From IMG/VR virus record IMGVR_UViG_2563366972_000008, positions 1 to 39,130 of that record: 39,130 bases of DNA; one strand, written 5' to 3'. The position numbers and the translations under genes are program-made. The DNA is from a virus (lineage: Duplodnaviria; Heunggongvirae; Uroviricota; Caudoviricetes). Shown here piece by piece: positions 22,031-38,239 of this stretch (its first letter is position 1; every line of letters starts with the position of its first letter). The notes beneath the pieces were generated by a model. That model saw nothing but the letters and a program-made list of their open reading frames with translations, was not told the DNA's origin and searched no databases.

Positions 22031-22105
<75 letters not shown>

Positions 22106-22108
22106 ATA

Positions 22109-22184
<76 letters not shown>

Positions 22185-22186
22185 AC

Positions 22187-22263
22187 TGGACCGCCACCGG
22201 GGACTCGAACCTCGCACACTCAACTTAAAGGGTTGACGCTCTTTCCTGATGAGCTAGTGGCGG
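22187..22263 (-). tRNA. tRNA-like gene with noncanonical anticodon loop CCUUUAA (possibly Lys-UUU; C at position 33)
   Basis: Acceptor CCGCCAC/GTGGCGG, T-arm with TTCGAGT loop and encoded CCA; anticodon loop lacks the usual U33 and the T-stem has one mismatch. Confidence 0.55.
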
Positions 22264-22264
22264 T

Positions 22265-22340
22265 TGGTGGCCCTTGCTGGATTTGAACCAGCGACCTGGC
22301 GATTATGAGTCGCTCGCTCTCACCACTGAGCTAAAGGGCC
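22265..22340 (-). tRNA. tRNA with CAU anticodon, ileX/ileZ-like (Ile2 or Met)
   Basis: Acceptor GGCCCTT/AAGGGCC, anticodon loop CUCAUAA, TTCAAAT T-loop, CCA; resembles the Ile2 tRNA carried by lambdoid phages downstream of Q. Confidence 0.8.
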
Positions 22341-26732: not shown

Positions 26733-26885
26733 TTAACGTTTTTCAACTTCGTAGGCTAAATACGCTGAAAGCTCTGTGTTTCCCTGCCTGATGTGCAGCT
26801 CGCATAGCGAACCGCGAACCATCCAGACAAATATCAGAATGGTGATGCAAACCACCACCAGACAAAACACATAGCTCCTTCGCAT
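26733..26885 (-). CDS. hok: Hok/Gef-family type I toxin
   Basis: 50-aa ORF (absent from the ORF track) found by hand translation: MRRSYVFCLVVVCITILIFVWMVRGSLCELHIRQGNTELSAYLAYEVEKR; one TM helix plus the conserved LCE motif; AGGGGG RBS. Confidence 0.75.
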   Translation of the reverse strand: MRRSYVFCLVVVCITILIFVWMVRGSLCELHIRQGNTELSAYLAYEVEKR

Positions 26886-26943
26886 TACAGCCCCCTGTTA
26901 GTTGATTTCTTACTGTTAAGAGGCTAATCTTTATGTGTCGCAT
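26743..26943 (-). CDS. mok: mok-like overlapping reading frame
   Basis: 66-aa ORF overlapping hok in another frame and starting about 60 nt upstream, as in hok/mok/sok loci. Confidence 0.45.
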   Translation of the reverse strand: MRHIKISLLTVRNQLTGGCNAKELCVLSGGGLHHHSDICLDGSRFAMRAAHQAGKHRAFSVFSLRS

Positions 26944-27176
26944 ACAGAATGCCTCAGATTAATGTTAAGCGTCTTGCCGGACGCGTAATGTTAACTGGGG
27001 CTTTTCTCTATCTGCCGTTGGTGTTCATGCCCGAGGCAGATAGCCTCAAGCACCCGCAGCAATTCTACTTAACTCTCCTTTTCCCGCAAACCGTTTTTAT
27101 CCCCAGCGGCAAATCGAATACACCACCAGCGCCACCGCCATCGCAATTCCTACCGTTGTGAATGCTTCAGGCCAAG

Positions 27177-31640: not shown

Positions 31641-32030
31641 ATGGACATGAGAAAAAAGCAATACGACACCCCGCTAGCAGAAAGGTTAGATGCGATCTCT
31701 CAACAGCATCATTTAAGTGGTTCAGATTTAGCGCGTATCGCTGGTGTAGGTCGTTCATCAGTCAACGCATGGAAAAAAAGAGGAACAATCAGTAAAGATT
31801 CCGCAGCCAAAATTGCAGAAGCCACAAACGTTTCCCTTTCTTGGCTACTGACAGGGAAAGAAGAGACAAATAGAGAAGCGCTTGATGATGACGAGAAGGC
31901 CCTGCTTGATGTTTACAGAAACCTGCCACCCGTAGAACGTAGAAATATGCTGGCAGCTTTTCAAATGCGACTTCAAAAACTGACCGAATTTTACTCAGAA
32001 TACGTCGACCCAATAACACGACAAAAATAA
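31641..32030 (+). CDS. HTH_XRE repressor (DicA/CI-like)
   Basis: 129-aa ORF with HTH (LSGSDLARIAGVGRSSVNAWKK), divergent from cro-like gene, heading the ydfABC-dicB-like operon. Confidence 0.75.
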   Translation: MDMRKKQYDTPLAERLDAISQQHHLSGSDLARIAGVGRSSVNAWKKRGTISKDSAAKIAEATNVSLSWLLTGKEETNREALDDDEKALLDVYRNLPPVERRNMLAAFQMRLQKLTEFYSEYVDPITRQK

Positions 32031-32198
32031 TTCTTTATTTTACAGAATCATACCGCCGCAAGGCGGTTTTTTTTACCTTTTACGTATTCATTATGTTGAC
32101 TTTTGTTCACCTAGAGAGAACAATGTATTCCATCAAAGCACAACGGTGCGACAGGTCTTAGTTCCGCTACCCCGGCGTTAAGGGGAAATGAGGTCAAC

Positions 32199-32354
32199 AT
32201 GGATACTATCGATCTTGGCAACAACGAATCTCTGGTATACAGCGTGTTTCCCAACCAGGACGGCACATTCACCGCGATGACGTATACCAAAAGCAAAACG
32301 TTTAAAACCGAATCTGGCGCGCGTCGCTGGCTGGAAAGAAATTCAGGTGAGTGA
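32199..32354 (+). CDS. ydfA: YdfA-like small protein
   Basis: 51-aa ORF with GAGG RBS, found by hand translation; same length and operon position as Qin ydfA. Confidence 0.55.
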   Translation: MDTIDLGNNESLVYSVFPNQDGTFTAMTYTKSKTFKTESGARRWLERNSGE

Positions 32355-32355
32355 T

Positions 32356-32484
32356 ATGGATTTCGACACAATCATGAAAAAGGCTTACGAAGAATACTTC
32401 GAAAACCTCGCCGAAGGCGAAGAAACTCTCAGCTTCAGCGAATTTAAACAGGCGCTTTCCAGCTCGGCAAAATCTAACGGCTGA
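32356..32484 (+). CDS. ydfB: YdfB-like small protein
   Basis: 42-aa ORF starting 1 bp after the ydfA stop, GGTGAG RBS; same length and position as Qin ydfB. Confidence 0.5.
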   Translation: MDFDTIMKKAYEEYFENLAEGEETLSFSEFKQALSSSAKSNG

Positions 32485-32513
32485 TAAGCGAAGCAGCACC
32501 GCGAGGAATCAGT

Positions 32514-32732
32514 ATGCAGAAACGAGAACCCGTCATCATCGCGCCAGACTATACCGATGATGAACTTTATGAGTGGATGCGCCAGAAAATTAATGCAGCG
32601 CAGGATCTGAAATGGGCCAATGAAGCCAGGGCTAAGCAGGCTGAAAATCTGTCCGCTCTGGAGCAGGATATCACCAGGCTGGAAAAAGCAGCGGCATTAA
32701 GCATTGCCAGAATGATTACATACCCGCGTTAA
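32514..32732 (+). CDS. ydfC: YdfC-like protein
   Basis: 72-aa ORF with GAGGAA RBS; same length and position as Qin ydfC. Confidence 0.6.
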   Translation: MQKREPVIIAPDYTDDELYEWMRQKINAAQDLKWANEARAKQAENLSALEQDITRLEKAAALSIARMITYPR

Positions 32733-32867
32733 TAGCTAACCAACGAAGCTAAGGTTGGTAATTAAGGAGTTCTCCACGGGTGAGGTGGAGTGCGTGCGCC
32801 GGACACGGGTGAGCATCCGGTACGTTCTTTAAAAATCTGGATAGTCCCAACTTATTTAAACGGTTAA

Positions 32868-33299
32868 TTATCTTGAGTTCATCCAGAACTTATTATTGCA
32901 AGCGGGGCAAAAAGTACGAAAATGAGCATCAAAGCGCATTATTTCCATTGGCTGAAGTACAGATATTACCTTTTTTCCAAAACATTGTGGGCAAAGATGC
33001 ACAGTTATCTCAGTATCGCCTATAAATTGCTTCTTGGAATATACAAGGGTTCCAGAATCAAGCTTGTTAAGCTTGTAACCTTCCGCCTGTCGCTGAAAAT
33101 CTTCTGTCTCTGCAATTTTTGCTTTGAGATGCATTATCTCTTCATCACGAAAGCGGATCGCATCGCAAAGAGAGAAGCATTCCGCCTGAAGCGTGATTAG
33201 TTTGTTCTGAAGTTCAATAGTTGCGGCTTTAACTTCTGCATCCGTTTTTGCGTCATTAATAACCTTAGCGAGACCAGCTGTCTCCTTTATCGCAGCCAT
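32868..33299 (-). CDS. Hypothetical coiled-coil / C-terminal zinc-ribbon protein, reverse-oriented in the early-left operon
   Basis: 143 aa from ATG 33299 (MAAIKETAGLAKVINDAKTDAEV...); CPQC...CPAC pairs near the C-terminus; AT-rich; opposite strand to all neighbours. Confidence 0.55.
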   Translation of the reverse strand: MAAIKETAGLAKVINDAKTDAEVKAATIELQNKLITLQAECFSLCDAIRFRDEEIMHLKAKIAETEDFQRQAEGYKLNKLDSGTLVYSKKQFIGDTEITVHLCPQCFGKKVISVLQPMEIMRFDAHFRTFCPACNNKFWMNSR

Positions 33300-33629
33300 A
33301 GCCGCTGACAGTTCTGCTATCACGTTGAGTACTCTTCTCGTTGTTGGGGATATCCGGATTATACAAATTTCTTGTTGTTGGGGAATAACAGGAACCACCT
33401 CGCCTGACGTGGTTAAAAGCAGGCACACAACGCGAAAGCGTACGGCGAGGTAGCTGGTTTATAGATAGCCTGTCGTTAAATTTTCGTCGACCGTGCGCTT
33501 CCGGTTGTGGCACTCCGCGAAATGGCGCGGCGGTAAGTATGGCGGGGTTATTCCTTCCCCGTTGAGGACACCAGGTTGTCAGGTTGACCATACGCTTAAG
33601 TGACAACCCCGCTGCAACAACCCATGTTG

Positions 33630-33686
33630 ATTACCTTTTGGCGGGTATCCGTTTTTTGTTTTCCCTTGTGATACCCGCCCTTTTTA
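33630..33686 (+). ncRNA. dicF: DicF-like sRNA 3' module with intrinsic terminator
   Basis: Perfect 10-bp inverted repeat GGCGGGTATC (33640-33649) / GATACCCGCC (33670-33679) then CTTTTT, about 180 bp upstream of dicB; downstream tract AAAGTGAATTTTGTGATG recalled from the Qin dicF-dicB spacer. 5' end not determinable. Confidence 0.4.
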
Positions 33687-33868
33687 AAGTGAATTTTGTG
33701 ATGCGGTGAATGCGGCTCAGCGCACGCGGAACAGTTAAAAAGGCCAGTTGACTTCCGTATTGGTTCTTATGGGTGGGTTCTCTGTATCCGGCGTTAATTG
33801 TTAACTGGTTAACGTCACCTGGAGGCACCAGGCACCGCATCACAAAATTCATTGTTGAGGACGCGATA

Positions 33869-34057
33869 ATGGAAAAGTTATCATGCAATGCCAGTACGTC
33901 TGAACTTCGTTTCGAAATTGGCGTTATCACTGGAGACAAAACATTTATTGAAGACGCCATTAAGCAGAGAAAACTCGAGCATGACCTGTTAAATGAAGTA
34001 TGCATTCCTTCAATGCTGGCTCGTCTTGACCTGCTGCAAAAAGGATATAAACAATGA
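33869..34057 (+). CDS. dicB: Cell division inhibitor DicB
   Basis: 62-aa translation MEKLSCNASTSELRFEIGVITGDKTFIEDAIKQRKLEHDLLNEVCIPSMLARLDLLQKGYKQ resembles K-12 DicB as recalled; GAGGA RBS. Confidence 0.75.
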   Translation: MEKLSCNASTSELRFEIGVITGDKTFIEDAIKQRKLEHDLLNEVCIPSMLARLDLLQKGYKQ

Positions 34058-34245
34058 ATACAACATTTGCACTCGTTCTGACAGTTTATCTTGTTTCCGG
34101 CGAATCTCTTGAGCTGGTGACTGGCTTATACGGTTCAATGAAAGAATGCATGGCTGCCGCAGCAGAACAAAAAATTCCCGGTAACTGTTATCCGGTAGAT
34201 AAAGCTACTCACACTAATAATAACGAAATACCGGCAGGACTTTAA
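34054..34245 (+). CDS. ydfD: YdfD-like small membrane/lysis protein
   Basis: 63-aa ORF overlapping the dicB stop (ATGA); N-terminal hydrophobic helix; same length and position as Qin ydfD. Confidence 0.6.
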   Translation: MNTTFALVLTVYLVSGESLELVTGLYGSMKECMAAAAEQKIPGNCYPVDKATHTNNNEIPAGL

Positions 34246-34338
34246 AACAGCACCGTAATTAATATCCGGTTTTATTTTTATATGCCAGCAATGGCAGGGA
34301 TTTGTTCACCCTTAAATCTGTAATGAGGTTAAAACAAA

Positions 34339-36810
34339 ATGAGTAAAGTCTTTATTTGCGCCGCCATTCCGGACGAACAGGCAATAAAGGAAGAAGGTGC
34401 AGTCGCTGTAGCCACTGCCATTGAAGCCGGTGACGAACGCCGCGCCCGTGCCAAATTTACCTGGCAATTCCTGGAGCAATATCCGGCTGCTCAGGACTGC
34501 GCTTATAAATTTCTTGTCTGCGAGGATAAACCCGGCATGCCCCGCCCTGCTATCGACTCATGGGATACCGAATATATGCAGGAAAACCGCTGGGATGAAG
34601 AGTCAGCCTCTTTTGTCCCGGTCGAACCAGAATCCGATCCGATGAACGTCAATTTTGACAAGCTGTCCCCTGAAGTGCAGAACGCAGTCCTGGTTAAGTT
34701 CGGTACATGCGAAAACATCACCGTTGATATGGTGATTAGCGCACAGGAGTTACTGCAGGAAGACGTGGCGACATTCGACGGGCATATCGTTGAAGCACTG
34801 ATGAAAACACCAGAAATTAACGCTATGTATCCGGAACGCAAACTGTTCGCTATCGGATGGGTTAAACATAAATGTAAGCCTGGCGCAAAATGGCCGGACA
34901 TTCAGGCCGAATTACGTAACTGGAAAAAACGGCAGGACGCAGAGCGCAAAGAGACTGGAAAATACACGTCTGTTATTGATCTTGCCCGCGCCAAAGCCAA
35001 CCGACAGCACACTGAAAACCCGGCGGGAAAAATCCCCCCTGCCACTGCTGCCATTCGTCGTGAATACAAGCAGACATGGAAAACACTGGATGAAGAACTG
35101 GCCTACGCTCTCTGGCCTGGTGATATTGATGCCGGAAACATTGACGGCAGCATCCATCGCTGGGCAAAAAATGAAGTTATCGACAAGGATCGCGAAGACT
35201 GGAAGCGCATCTCCGCATCAATGCGCAAACAGCCTGATGCGCTTCGCTACAGCCGTCAGACGATTTTTGGTCTCGTTCGCGAACGTCCGATCGACATTCA
35301 CAAAGACCCTGTGGCACTGAACAAATACATTACTGAATACCTGACTACAAAGGGCGTGTTTGAAGATGAAGGAACAAATCAGAGCGCAACTGATACTCTC
35401 TCGTCGCCAGTACCAGAAACTGATGCAGTGGAAACGGCAATTCCGGACAACGAAAAAACCGAATGCAAAGTGGAAGTCGAACCATCTGTAGAGCGTGAGG
35501 GGCCGTTCTACTTCCTCTTCACCGACAAGGATGGCGAAAAATACGGTCGCGCAAACAAACTTTCTGGTCTGGATAAGGCGCTGGCTGCCGGGGCTACTGA
35601 AATCACGAAAGAAGAATATTTCTCCCGCAAAAACGGTACATACTCAGGTTCACAACAAAATACTGGTGCATCTGACACGACCGCACAACCAGAGCCGGTA
35701 AAAGTTACCGCTGAAGAAGTAAACAAAATTATGCAGGCAGCCAATATCAGCCAGCCTGACGCCGATGAACTGCTTGCAGTATCACGTGGTGAATTTGTTG
35801 CAGGGATTAGCGATCCGAATGATCCGAAATGGGTGAAGGGGATTGAAACCCGCGATTCTGTGAACCAGAACCAGCAAGAAACGGAACAGAACGACCAGAA
35901 AGCGGAACAAAACAGCCCAAATACGCAACAAAACGAGCCAGAAACGAAACAACCTGAACCAGTAGTGCAACAGGAACCGGAAAAGATCTGCACCGCCTGC
36001 GGTCAGAGCGGTGGCGGCAACTGCCCTGATTGTGGTGCGGTGATGGGTGACGCAACATACCAGGAAATATTCGATGGAGAGAATCAGCCTGAAGTTCAGG
36101 AAAATGATCCGGAGGAAATGGAAGGCACTGCGCATCAGCACAAGGAGAACACTGGCGGCAATCAGCATCATGCCAGCGATAGTGAAACTGGCGAGGCGTC
36201 AGATCCCTTAATTAAGGTGAACGGTCATCATAATCTCACATCCTCCAGCAGAGCGGGAATTCATCTGATGATCGACCTTGAAACCATGGGAAAAAATCCC
36301 GATGCCCCGATTATCTCAATAGGCGCAATATTTTTCGATCCGCAAACCGGAGATATGGGACCGGAATTTAGTAAGACTATCGATCTGGAAACTGCTGGCG
36401 GAGTCATTGATCGGGACACCATTAAATGGTGGCTTAAGCAATCACGCGAAGCGCAATCTGCCATTATGACCGATGAAATCCCGTTAGATGATGCACTGTT
36501 ACAATTGCGGGAATTTATCGACGAAAACTCCGGTGAATTTTTTGTTCAGGTCTGGGGAAATGGAGCCAACTTCGACAACACGATTTTGCGCCGTTCATAC
36601 GAACGGCAGGGGATCCCCTGCCCGTGGCGCTACTGCAACGATCGCGATATACGCACAATCGTTGAGCTGGGGAAAGCCATAGACTTCGATGCCAGAACTG
36701 CTATCCCATTCGAAGGTGAGCGCCATAATGCACTTGATGACGCTCGTTACCAGGCAAAATACGTTTCAGCTATCTGGCAAAAACTGATCCCGAGTCAGGC
36801 TGATTTTTAA
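34339..36810 (+). CDS. Large early protein with C-terminal DnaQ-like (DEDDh) 3'-5' exonuclease domain; full-length YdfE-like
   Basis: 823-aa ORF; C-terminal motifs MIDLETMG, WGNGANFD and HNALDDARY; acidic Q/E-rich linker with a CTAC...CPDC zinc-ribbon-like motif. Confidence 0.8.
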   Translation: MSKVFICAAIPDEQAIKEEGAVAVATAIEAGDERRARAKFTWQFLEQYPAAQDCAYKFLVCEDKPGMPRPAIDSWDTEYMQENRWDEESASFVPVEPESDPMNVNFDKLSPEVQNAVLVKFGTCENITVDMVISAQELLQEDVATFDGHIVEALMKTPEINAMYPERKLFAIGWVKHKCKPGAKWPDIQAELRNWKKRQDAERKETGKYTSVIDLARAKANRQHTENPAGKIPPATAAIRREYKQTWKTLDEELAYALWPGDIDAGNIDGSIHRWAKNEVIDKDREDWKRISASMRKQPDALRYSRQTIFGLVRERPIDIHKDPVALNKYITEYLTTKGVFEDEGTNQSATDTLSSPVPETDAVETAIPDNEKTECKVEVEPSVEREGPFYFLFTDKDGEKYGRANKLSGLDKALAAGATEITKEEYFSRKNGTYSGSQQNTGASDTTAQPEPVKVTAEEVNKIMQAANISQPDADELLAVSRGEFVAGISDPNDPKWVKGIETRDSVNQNQQETEQNDQKAEQNSPNTQQNEPETKQPEPVVQQEPEKICTACGQSGGGNCPDCGAVMGDATYQEIFDGENQPEVQENDPEEMEGTAHQHKENTGGNQHHASDSETGEASDPLIKVNGHHNLTSSSRAGIHLMIDLETMGKNPDAPIISIGAIFFDPQTGDMGPEFSKTIDLETAGGVIDRDTIKWWLKQSREAQSAIMTDEIPLDDALLQLREFIDENSGEFFVQVWGNGANFDNTILRRSYERQGIPCPWRYCNDRDIRTIVELGKAIDFDARTAIPFEGERHNALDDARYQAKYVSAIWQKLIPSQADF

Positions 36811-36868: not shown

Positions 36869-37072
36869 ATGAGCAGCTTATTTTTAACCGAAGATGAATT
36901 GCTAATATTAACGGGCTGCAAATATGCAAGCCACCAGCGAAAATGGTTAATGGAAAACGGGCTTCCGTTCTATACCAATCGTAGTGGCAAACCGATTGTC
37001 AGCCGGGATCTATTTACCTGCAATAAAACTTTACCACCACGCGAGGTAGAGCCGAATTTTGGTGCGATCTGA
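36869..37072 (+). CDS. xis: Excisionase (Xis)
   Basis: 67-aa ORF immediately upstream of and overlapping the integrase start. Confidence 0.7.
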   Translation: MSSLFLTEDELLILTGCKYASHQRKWLMENGLPFYTNRSGKPIVSRDLFTCNKTLPPREVEPNFGAI

Positions 37073-38097
37073 TGGGAAGACGAAGGAAAAATCCTGAACA
37101 CGAAAAATTACCTCCAAATGTATACCCAAATAAATATAGTTATGTATGGAAACCAACATCCAGAGAATCTGTCACACTAACCGCCATCAAGGATGGTTTA
37201 GCTGCTTTATGGAAAAAGTATGAGGAAACTGTAAATAATCGCGATCGTGCAATGACATTCGGTCGCTTGTGGGAAAAATTCCTCGCCAGCGCCTATTACA
37301 GTGACCTTAGTCCAAGAACACAAAAAGATTATCTGCAACATCAAAAAAAGTTGCTTGCCGTATTCGGTAAGGTACCAGCGGATTCCATAAAACCAGAACA
37401 CATCCGTCGATACATGGACAAAAGAGGGGAGCAGAGTAAAACGCAAGCCAACCATGAAAAAAGCAGTATGTCCCGTGTTTACAGTTGGGGGTATGAGCGA
37501 GGGTACGTGAAGGCTAACCCATGTGCAGGTGTAAGTAAATTCAAGGCCAAAAACCGCGAACGATATGTAACCGACAAAGAATACCAGGCAGTATTAAGCG
37601 TTGCACCTCTTCCTGTTTTTATCGCAATGGAAATTGCCTATCTGTGTGCAGCGAGGGTTTCCGATGTGTTATCGCTGAAATGGGAACAGATTGGAAACGA
37701 CGGGATATTCATCCAGCAAGGGAAAACCGGAAAAAAACAGATAAAAGCATGGAGTCCACGATTACAGGCAGCGATCGAAAAAGCAAAACAGTTACCAAAA
37801 TCTGCCTATGTGATCAGCAATCAATACGGCAACCGATATATGTACAAAGGCTTTAACGAAATGTGGGTAGAAGCAAGAAATCGTGCTGGAAAAATTTCAG
37901 GTATTTTAACCGACTTCACCTTTCATGATCTGAAGGCGAAAGGAATTTCAGACTATGAAGGAAGCAGCCGGGATAAGCAACTTTTCTCTGGTCACAAAAC
38001 CGAAGGGCAAGTGCTAATCTATGACAGGAAGGTTAAAATTTCACCAACACTTAATGTCCCGTTACCTGAAAATATTCCAAGAAAATATTCCAAGTAA
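37072..38097 (+). CDS. int: Tyrosine integrase
   Basis: 341-aa ORF with tyrosine-recombinase C-terminal catalytic region, 52 bp from a tRNA gene. Confidence 0.9.
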   Translation: MGRRRKNPEHEKLPPNVYPNKYSYVWKPTSRESVTLTAIKDGLAALWKKYEETVNNRDRAMTFGRLWEKFLASAYYSDLSPRTQKDYLQHQKKLLAVFGKVPADSIKPEHIRRYMDKRGEQSKTQANHEKSSMSRVYSWGYERGYVKANPCAGVSKFKAKNRERYVTDKEYQAVLSVAPLPVFIAMEIAYLCAARVSDVLSLKWEQIGNDGIFIQQGKTGKKQIKAWSPRLQAAIEKAKQLPKSAYVISNQYGNRYMYKGFNEMWVEARNRAGKISGILTDFTFHDLKAKGISDYEGSSRDKQLFSGHKTEGQVLIYDRKVKISPTLNVPLPENIPRKYSK

Positions 38098-38149
38098 TTC
38101 CAAGTGTGATTTTTGTCACTGACTTAATGATGTGTAAGTGATTGAATTT

Positions 38150-38239
38150 TGGCGGAGAGAGGGGGATTTGAACCCCCGGTGGAGTTGCCCCCACTCCGGT
38201 TTTCGAGACCGGTCCGTTCAGCCGCTCCGGCATCTCTCC
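38150..38239 (-). tRNA. serU: tRNA-Ser (anticodon CGA), serU-like; probable attachment site
   Basis: 90-nt cloverleaf with long variable arm, anticodon loop CUCGAAA, acceptor GGAGAGA/TCTCTCC, encoded CCA. Confidence 0.85.

Follow-up and report, generated by a model that had tools for sequence, protein, structure and literature searches.

An alternative allele of the dicF small-RNA slot upstream of dicB in a Qin/Rac-type prophage of Escherichia coli

The stretch of DNA analyzed here (39,130 nucleotides of a tailed virus of the Caudoviricetes, IMG/VR virus record IMGVR_UViG_2563366972_000008, positions 1 to 39,130; hereafter the window) carries, at 33619-33687, an alternative allele of the small RNA (sRNA) slot that lies just upstream of the division-inhibitor gene in lambdoid Qin/Rac-type prophages. 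We refer to it as allele B; the slot is occupied by the sRNA DicF in the Qin prophage of E. coli K-12 and by the sRNA KilS in Rac, and, as far as the sequences compared here indicate, it consists of a constant scaffold with a variable interior. That the hairpin of allele B is an element of the terminator type is certain, and it lies in the DicF/KilS slot of a Qin/Rac-type prophage that looks intact. By analogy with those two occupants we lean, with only modest confidence, toward the view that allele B would yield an sRNA of the Hfq type with a seed unlike that of DicF, released by cleavage of the early-left operon transcript and with its 3' end at the terminator. The parts of the slot and of its surroundings are as follows.

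33452..33618, + strand: highly conserved upstream leader, homologue of the 5' part of the 190-nt DicF precursor (95-100% identity to Qin)
33619..33639, + strand: variable 5' module of allele B, AACCCATGTTGATTACCTTTT, delimited by alignment to Qin
33640-33649 and 33670-33679, + strand: perfect 10-bp stem, GGCGGGTATC with GATACCCGCC
33650-33669, + strand: 20-nt U/C-rich loop, CGTTTTTTGTTTTCCCTTGT, the putative seed
33680..33687, + strand: intrinsic-terminator U-run, CUUUUUAA (C plus TTTTT at 33680-33685; tail as in DicF and KilS)
33688..33852, + strand: conserved structured spacer, common to Qin and Rac

Both reading of the sequence and RNA folding confirm the perfect 10-bp stem with a U-run terminator (33640-33685) that a preliminary description of this DNA had pointed out. 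The cassette folds at -18.5 kcal/mol (z = -5.1), with 0/200 dinucleotide shuffles as stable, and the hairpin in a 101-nt context folds at -24.2 kcal/mol (z = -3.45). Its 3' end is of the terminator type, a GC-rich 10-bp stem followed by CUUUUU, with a tail identical to that of K-12 DicF. A consensus terminator scan, which admits only loops of 3-8 nt, missed the hairpin, whose loop of 20 nt exceeds the usual range, and picked out just a spurious sub-hairpin of 5 bp at 33640-33653. The module at 33619-33639 stands in place of the 16 nt upstream of DicF and of its 14-nt single-stranded 5' seed, so that by homology the 5' end of a short form of the RNA would fall near 33635.

The hairpin occupies the exact dicF position in a Qin-type ydfABC-sRNA-dicB-ydfD operon, where the preliminary description had placed it, and the flanking sequence that it took to be from the dicF-dicB spacer is real: 33455-33614 and 33688-33847 share 95-100% identity with the sequences on either side of dicF in K-12 Qin, apart from a variable block at 33728-33767. 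Followed along K-12 Qin, identity is 95-100% over 33455-33614, 50-62% over 33615-33687, 95-98% in the spacer and 65-80% inside dicB, which bears out the earlier remark that stem and loop are not those of K-12 DicF. The Rfam DicF model (RF00039) found no match at its gathering score (48 bits) in the whole window and none even at E<=10 in a 1-kb search of 33300-34300, while K-12 dicF, used as the positive control, scored 76.7 bits; other alleles of the slot described below (C, D, E and F) likewise fail the model. The preliminary description had named two observations that together would speak against it, the lack of a hit to this model and the lack of a processed small RNA, and the first of the two is what the search returned. 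Its phrase "diverged DicF-like" therefore stands for the slot, the terminator base, the U-tail, the leader and the spacer, and falls for the cassette itself, which gives no RF00039 match and has no xylR-regulating 5' arm. The alignment with K-12 dicF that it had proposed is equally two-sided: the flanks are conserved, and at the cassette identity steps from 100% to about 50% and back to 95%. These abrupt steps, together with the recombinant alleles described below, argue for replacement of a cassette in a polymorphic slot rather than for divergence.

What has been replaced relative to DicF comprises the 16 nt before the RNase E-made 5' end, the 14-nt 5' arm, both the upper stem and the loop, and the ftsZ-pairing segment on the 3' side. 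In the alignment to Qin the single-stranded 5' seed of DicF, UUUCUGGUGACGUUU, is absent, and a sequence ending in GAUUACCUUUU directly precedes the stem instead; this arm of DicF regulates xylR (PMC5069750). Allele B resembles DicF in lying between a ydfC-type leader and dicB, in the stem base GGCGG/CCGCC, the preceding U-stretch and the CUUUUU tail, and in the 5' half of the stem and start of the loop (TATC.GTTTT); presumably it also resembles DicF in biogenesis, through RNase III and RNase E processing plus termination. It differs in that its upper stem is perfect where that of DicF is two-tiered, in its 20-nt U/C-rich loop as against the 9-nt DicF loop UUACUCCGU, and in the replaced ftsZ-pairing segment.

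The range of alleles was surveyed in IMG/VR with three patterns, namely the conserved flanks on either side of a gap of variable length, the 5' module of B type and the 3' stem of KilS type, and also in one genome per species, after which cassettes were extracted by script. Among the loci found with the 16-mer CAACAACCCATGTTGA, 29/36 lacking the flank pattern were chance matches in unrelated viral contigs. The alleles recognized include the following.

Allele A: the canonical DicF hairpin
Alleles B1-B7 (the window carries B1): GGCGGGTAT(C/T) ... GATACCCGCC, with loops of 17-20 nt of the form CGUUUUG.UUUU.CCC
Allele C: GGCGGCATCAG-TTTCATTGCTGG-CTGATGTCCGCC
KilS-type allele: the KilS hairpin
Allele D: the DicF 5' arm with a KilS-type stem
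Alleles G and H: further variants
Allele F: a minimal hairpin with an 8-nt loop

On folding, every allele forms a terminal hairpin, and all of them have in common the 5' base UUU(U)GGCGG (UUUUGGCGG) and the 3' end CCGCC(C)UUUUU (CCGCCCUUUUU), with the upper stem and loop variable. Just 5' of the hairpin lies a U-rich stretch that hardly varies from allele to allele and belongs to the known Hfq-binding module. The common B sub-alleles pair a perfect or G-U-compatible stem with the long loop, which is open in 11/11 B sub-alleles. When 22 alleles outside the B family were used to build a covariance model, its best match in the 39 kb was the window hairpin (33636-33685; 26.7 bits, E about 1.5e-7), and the second-best scored 12.6 bits. 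In other prophages the allele-B 5' module is joined to other hairpins (C and E). Among sampled loci, B1 has DicB downstream in 19 and KilR in 2, allele C has DicB in 18 and KilR in 5, and allele A has DicB in 79 plus 17 (79 by the DicB motif and 17 with a DicB-like variant that the motif missed) and KilR in 2; 5' modules, hairpins and downstream genes (dicB or kilR) thus combine freely in the sample.

The slot as it stands in K-12 Rac belongs to the same series. An annotated sRNA, KilS (b4833), lies there just upstream of kilR, which encodes another FtsZ inhibitor, and in the Rac sequence it ends in GGCGGCATCAG-TTTTTTTCTTGAAGTTCGG-CTGATGTCCGCC-CTTTTT, after which the spacer (AAAGTGAATTTTGTGATGCGGTGAATGCGG...) begins as it does in Qin and in the window. 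Allele B and KilS thus share the position upstream of a division-inhibitor gene, the hairpin base, the U-tail and the conserved spacer, and B-type cassettes also occur upstream of kil genes. They differ in that KilS has the upper stem GGCGGCATCAG/CTGATGTCCGCC, the loop UUUUUUUCUUGAAGUUCGG and a shorter, different upstream leader; the interior of its hairpin and its upstream body do not occur in the window, which has in common with KilS just the base GGCGG/CCGCC and the tails. RIL-seq data first pointed to KilS, and a northern blot confirmed it, in a paper that does not mention DicF (Bar et al., 2021; PMC8175672). That northern and RIL-seq support belongs to KilS, whereas allele B is known here from sequence.

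Allele B recurs well beyond this one prophage. Among 5,426 complete E. coli genomes, the occurrences are as follows.

Canonical DicF: 3,947/5,426 genomes, 6,298 places
B family: 158/5,426 genomes, 170 places
Allele C: 89/5,426 genomes, 112 places

The 64-nt cassette of the window is at least 99% identical to 82 E. coli records, and carriers of the B family include O121 (Shiga toxin-producing E. coli, STEC), O55:H7 and pig enterotoxigenic (ETEC) strains, examples being O55:H7 RM12579 (NC_017656.1, 1999629-1999692) and O121 RM8352. Allele B is also found in IMG/VR prophage contigs, and a B-type cassette precedes a kil gene in one phage isolate, Actinobacillus phage vB_Apl-pPE4 by its deposited name. 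Among the RefSeq matches listed, no feature is annotated at B or at canonical DicF; since the two are equally bare, the missing annotation of B is uninformative. A BLAST count for the KilS hairpin came back empty although the genomes include K-12, an artefact of the low-complexity filter and of the 28-nt word meeting the T-run. One locus of the survey (L352; PP818812.1, 3497-8557), for which the deposited host is Actinobacillus pleuropneumoniae, combines an E. coli-type DicA repressor, a B-type cassette, the spacer, Kil and an exonuclease VIII region, so that either the stated host looks doubtful or the host range looks unusual. Two contigs from metagenome bins labelled Veillonella parvula and Collinsella sp. 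(L237, JAGZPX010000007.1; L238, JAIIUG010000151.1) carry a DicF cassette between E. coli-type flanks, canonical in L238 and with one loop base changed in L237; both are probably binning contaminants from E. coli prophages.

The constant parts of the slot are what would be expected to carry the processing. In K-12, two species of DicF arise from a transcript that starts upstream of ydfA: one of 190 nt, with a 5' end generated by RNase III, and one of 53 nt, generated by RNase E (PMC10448788). Transferred to the window by alignment, the 5' end of the 190-nt species would fall at about 33498, within a predicted 10-bp stem (33491-33500/33524-33534); the 5' end of KilS is homologous to about 33487. 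The leader itself is modular: in three IMG/VR loci (L125, L194 and L216) a central part of about 100 nt is missing, so that little separates CGCTTCCGGTTGTGGCA from the B-type 5' module, an arrangement also seen in the short Rac/KilS leader. On the other side of the cassette, the spacer folds into an 18-bp duplex (33691-33708 with 33833-33850) around inner hairpins, at -70.8 kcal/mol (z = -4.3). A comparison of 117 distinct spacers shows the outer pairs, roughly 23 in number, to be kept almost without exception, and an inner hairpin to bear compensatory changes, from G-C to U-A in 13 sequences and from U-A to G-C in 13. From this modeled structure, the duplex is probably an RNase III substrate that parts the sRNA from the dicB mRNA, and it is likely to be the RNase III site that yields the longer 3' form of DicF, which Faubladier et al. 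reported. The noncoding scaffold is better conserved than the adjacent genes, as its flanks are 95-100% identical to those in K-12 and DicB and YdfD only 55% and 63%; such strong conservation fits a processing role, and it would also supply homology for cassette exchange. The variable block within the spacer (33728-33767) is 45% identical to Qin with a 14-nt insertion, and corresponds to the apical part of one inner hairpin.

The spacer at 33692-33846 also resembles the STnc100 family (Rfam RF02076; 33.7 bits, E = 2.1e-5, model positions 21-154, below the gathering score of 47). The likeness to STnc100/PasD lies in the outer stem and the CACCUGGAGGCACCAGG hairpin, and in that all are structured prophage RNAs with many sequence variants; it concerns the spacer and not the cassette. 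PasD genes are located near the Q antiterminator gene and STnc100 beside Fels-1 prophage genes, and not near dicB (preprint 10.64898/2026.05.13.724894; Zhu, Shabalina and Storz). We rejected identity with the Pas sRNAs of enteropathogenic E. coli (EPEC), which the same preprint sites near lysis, Q antiterminator or structural genes, never mentioning dicB or DicF.

If allele B works as its relatives do, relief of the DicA-type repressor would produce a polycistronic transcript with a cut in the leader, of the kind that RNase III and RNase E make for DicF; the transcript would either end at the allele-B hairpin or be cut in the long stem downstream. Two products would result, both ending near 33685: a precursor, some 185-190 nt long, from about 33498, and a short RNA, some 50 nt long, from about 33635. 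The short RNA would bind Hfq via the U-rich stretch, the hairpin and the U-tail, and would pair with host mRNAs via its open U/C-rich loop, which has a UUUUCCC core and is anti-Shine-Dalgarno-like. Read-through transcripts would express dicB, with a block of division via MinC, and ydfD, with lysis, as in Qin. The set of targets should differ from that of DicF, because the 5' seed and most of the ftsZ-pairing 3' segment are lacking.

Several observations incline us to this reading. Both characterized occupants of the slot, DicF and KilS, are verified Hfq-associated sRNAs with mapped targets or interactions, and allele B recurs and is maintained, in genomes, in IMG/VR contigs and in one phage. 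Its position in a scaffold more conserved than the neighboring genes, the match to the non-B covariance model and the mixed combinations of modules also speak for it. The size of the loop suggests that it has been kept for a reason, as 20 nt exceeds what a terminator needs and allele F manages with 8 nt in the same scaffold. A number of points weigh against it. Every function ascribed to allele B is ascribed by analogy; its U-tail has five U's only; and the non-B covariance model aligns just the base of the hairpin and the tails and skips the interior, so that its match does not extend to the functional part. Variation within the B family sits mostly in the loop, which fits a relaxed loop free of function as well as it fits seed diversification. 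No internal promoter has been found for DicF (Ragunathan et al.), and production of the sRNA would therefore depend on derepression of the operon; the operon of the window is also interrupted by a gene on the opposite strand (32868-33428). The prediction of targets is a weak test as well, as set out below.

The most serious competitor, though in our judgment somewhat unlikely, is that the hairpin is an intrinsic terminator or attenuator of the tL type plus a processing site, which limits read-through into the toxic dicB-ydfD genes and releases a fragment with no role in trans; the differences among alleles would then be neutral, or a by-product of mosaic recombination between conserved linkers. 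A GC-rich stem and U-run at the very place where DicF termination is documented would fit this well, as would alleles that share the stem base and tails alone, a B family that varies chiefly in its loop, and an allele (F) reduced to a minimal hairpin; the sharp identity boundaries and recombinant alleles are likewise what lambdoid modular exchange would leave behind. The hairpin also resembles lambda tL-type terminators in being a GC-rich stem with a U-run, in an operon expressed after loss of the repressor, ahead of toxic early genes. It departs from them in its unusually large loop, in the conserved U-stretch before the hairpin and in the dedicated conserved scaffold on both sides. The open loop of 17-20 nt in every B sub-allele, set against the 3-8 nt usual in terminators, the near invariance of the U-rich stretch across alleles and the Hfq association of both characterized occupants all tell against a terminator and nothing else.

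That allele B has merely changed in sequence and is still a working DicF orthologue, able to repress translation of ftsZ, is decidedly unlikely. The slot and the partner gene dicB are the same, and the 5' half of the hairpin, GGCGG(G)TATC.GTTTT, resembles the GGCGGTATCAGTTTT of DicF; set against these are the lack of any Rfam DicF match and the replacement of the ftsZ-pairing segment (DicF nt 32-52), with the remainder locked in the perfect 10-bp stem. Pairing with ftsZ was estimated by a windowed duplex calculation corrected for accessibility, a test of low power in which even the DicF positive control is only weakly significant: it recovers the published site (DicF nt 32-52 with ftsZ -28..-8, at -8.4 kcal/mol), and 12.5% of random 120-nt windows do equally well or better. 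For B1 the best value was -3.6 kcal/mol, equalled or beaten by 46% of random 120-nt windows. The loop GUUUUUCCC(G) of B2 and B3 pairs with the ftsZ Shine-Dalgarno region CGGAGAGAAAC at -7.5 and -7.8 kcal/mol, respectively, against -8.4 for DicF (for B3, 7% of random windows do as well), but a loop of this anti-Shine-Dalgarno-like kind would pair weakly with many ribosome-binding sites. By this weak test there is no evidence that B1 retains the ftsZ or xylR activities of DicF. Full-length RNAduplex-type scoring against ftsZ was dropped, since random windows already gave about -26 to -32 kcal/mol. The best non-self complement of the B1 loop in the window is in the int mRNA (GCAAGGGAAAACCGGAAAAAAAC, 37716-37738, + strand; 12 + 7 bp with a 3-nt bulge, -15.8 kcal/mol). 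We rejected it as a target: the site is present in 1/12 B1 loci and 8/48 canonical DicF loci, and, as it is not associated with allele B1 elsewhere, it is probably a coincidence of the mosaic.

We also considered, and rejected as highly improbable, that the cassette encodes a tiny hydrophobic peptide. Open reading frames (ORFs) do exist, one of 15 aa from ATG 33625 (MLITFWRVSVFCFPL) and one of 41 aa from TTG 33584; the short one ends at a TGA in the 3' stem in B1, B2 and B3, and the loops of B1 and B2 differ by 3 nt. Neither start codon is preceded by a Shine-Dalgarno sequence, though, U-rich sequence gives hydrophobic codons by default, and the start codon lies outside the predicted short RNA. 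Nor is the reading frame preserved across the B alleles, because their loops are 17, 18, 19 and 20 nt long.

Going one step beyond an sRNA with its own seed, the dicF position could be a natural "seed-swap" locus, at which allele B is a functional sRNA with its own regulon and the diversity of alleles reflects selection; this wider idea we offer only tentatively, as less likely than not. The constant leader, the UUUUGGCGG/CCGCCCUUUUU base and the RNase III spacer would provide processing and Hfq binding, and the cassettes in the interior (DicF, KilS, B, C, D, G, H and so on) would be traded among lambdoid prophages, each cassette giving another host regulon beside the same division-inhibitor genes. 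Selection might act, for example, against redundancy or cross-talk among co-resident prophages.

The early-left operon in which the slot lies runs from ydfA-ydfB-ydfC-like genes through dicB, ydfD and an exonuclease gene to xis and int, and holds the conserved leader, the variable cassette and the conserved structured spacer between the ydfC-like gene and dicB. Its features are as follows.

31641..32030, + strand: DicA-type repressor gene, 129 aa (Pfam Phage_CI_repr, HTH_3), at the head of the operon in the position and orientation of dicA in K-12 Qin
32096..32124, + strand: candidate operon promoter (dicBp analogue), TTGACT-17-AACAAT, upstream of the ydfA-like gene, predicted by consensus scan alone (9/12 matches)
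32199-32354, + strand: ydfA-like gene (DUF1391, 94 bits)
32347-32484, + strand: ydfB-like gene
32514-32732, + strand: ydfC-like gene
32868..33428, - strand: 186-aa ORF, phrog_1244 (unknown function, 2e-51), between the ydfC-like gene and the conserved leader, not present in K-12 Qin (alignment gap 32824-33414)
33857-33861, + strand: Shine-Dalgarno sequence GAGGA before dicB
33869..34057, + strand: dicB, 62 aa (PF05358, 130.2 bits over residues 1-62; 55% identity to K-12 DicB)
34054..34245, + strand: ydfD-like gene, 63 aa (DUF1482, PF07358, 69 bits; 63% identity to K-12 YdfD)
34339-36810, + strand: 823-aa protein with a C-terminal Rv2179c-like 3'-5' exoribonuclease domain (PF16473, 224 bits), whose RefSeq relatives are labelled merely "exonuclease"

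The candidate promoter thus lies where the K-12 dicBF transcript has its start, upstream of ydfA (PMC10448788), and the stretch 32160-32823 is 95.5% identical to K-12 Qin ydfABC. The dicB gene overlapping a 63-aa ydfD-like gene, as the preliminary description had it, was confirmed by both Pfam families and by a 4-nt overlap, ATGA, at the dicB stop codon; dicB and ydfD here are ordinary members of their families. RefSeq labels K-12 YdfD a "lysis protein", and lysis activity is reported for YdfD (PMC8835842). The 186-aa ORF on the opposite strand, which may be an accessory or defense gene, has two Cys-x-x-Cys pairs at its end, and its place is taken in Rac by the exclusion gene sieB. Downstream, the alignment to K-12 Qin runs through to 35105, where K-12 has the ydfE pseudogene broken by an IS2 element (insD7).

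As far as the window reaches, the description of the prophage as apparently intact was reasonable, given that structural, packaging, lysis, replication and integrase genes are all present: its gene content includes tail fibre, tape measure, major head, portal, large terminase, endolysin, replication and integrase genes. The host is E. coli, and the prophage ends with the integrase gene beside tRNA-Ser(CGA) and mtfA. Further features of the window are the following.

22031-22340, - strand: four clustered prophage tRNA genes, Gly(TCC), Thr(TGT), Lys(TTT) and Met(CAT)
26883-27055, - strand: full-length sok antitoxin RNA (Rfam RF01794, 93.7 bits)
37072-38239: integrase gene, then tRNA-Ser(CGA), then host mtfA, marking the attachment end of the prophage

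The full-length sok RNA implies a hok/sok-type toxin-antitoxin locus inside the prophage. The segment at 37072-38239 is 100% identical to E. coli strain 702/18, and the dicB region had no full-length match better than 90% in complete genomes; from these two results it follows that the prophage is a mosaic, not present whole in the complete-genome collection.

DicF belongs to a small number of prophage sRNAs known to affect the division and metabolism of the host and, in enterohemorrhagic E. coli (EHEC), its virulence. A survey based on the Rfam model or on near-identical BLAST matches counts the canonical DicF allele alone, and in about 3% of complete E. coli genomes the dicF scaffold holds another, putative RNA, beside the same toxic genes; KilS belongs to the same slot. 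Even if allele B is only a terminator, it still explains dicB loci "without dicF." If it is active, it would add an uncharacterized regulator to pathogenic lineages and would offer a natural system for the evolution of sRNA seeds by cassette exchange.

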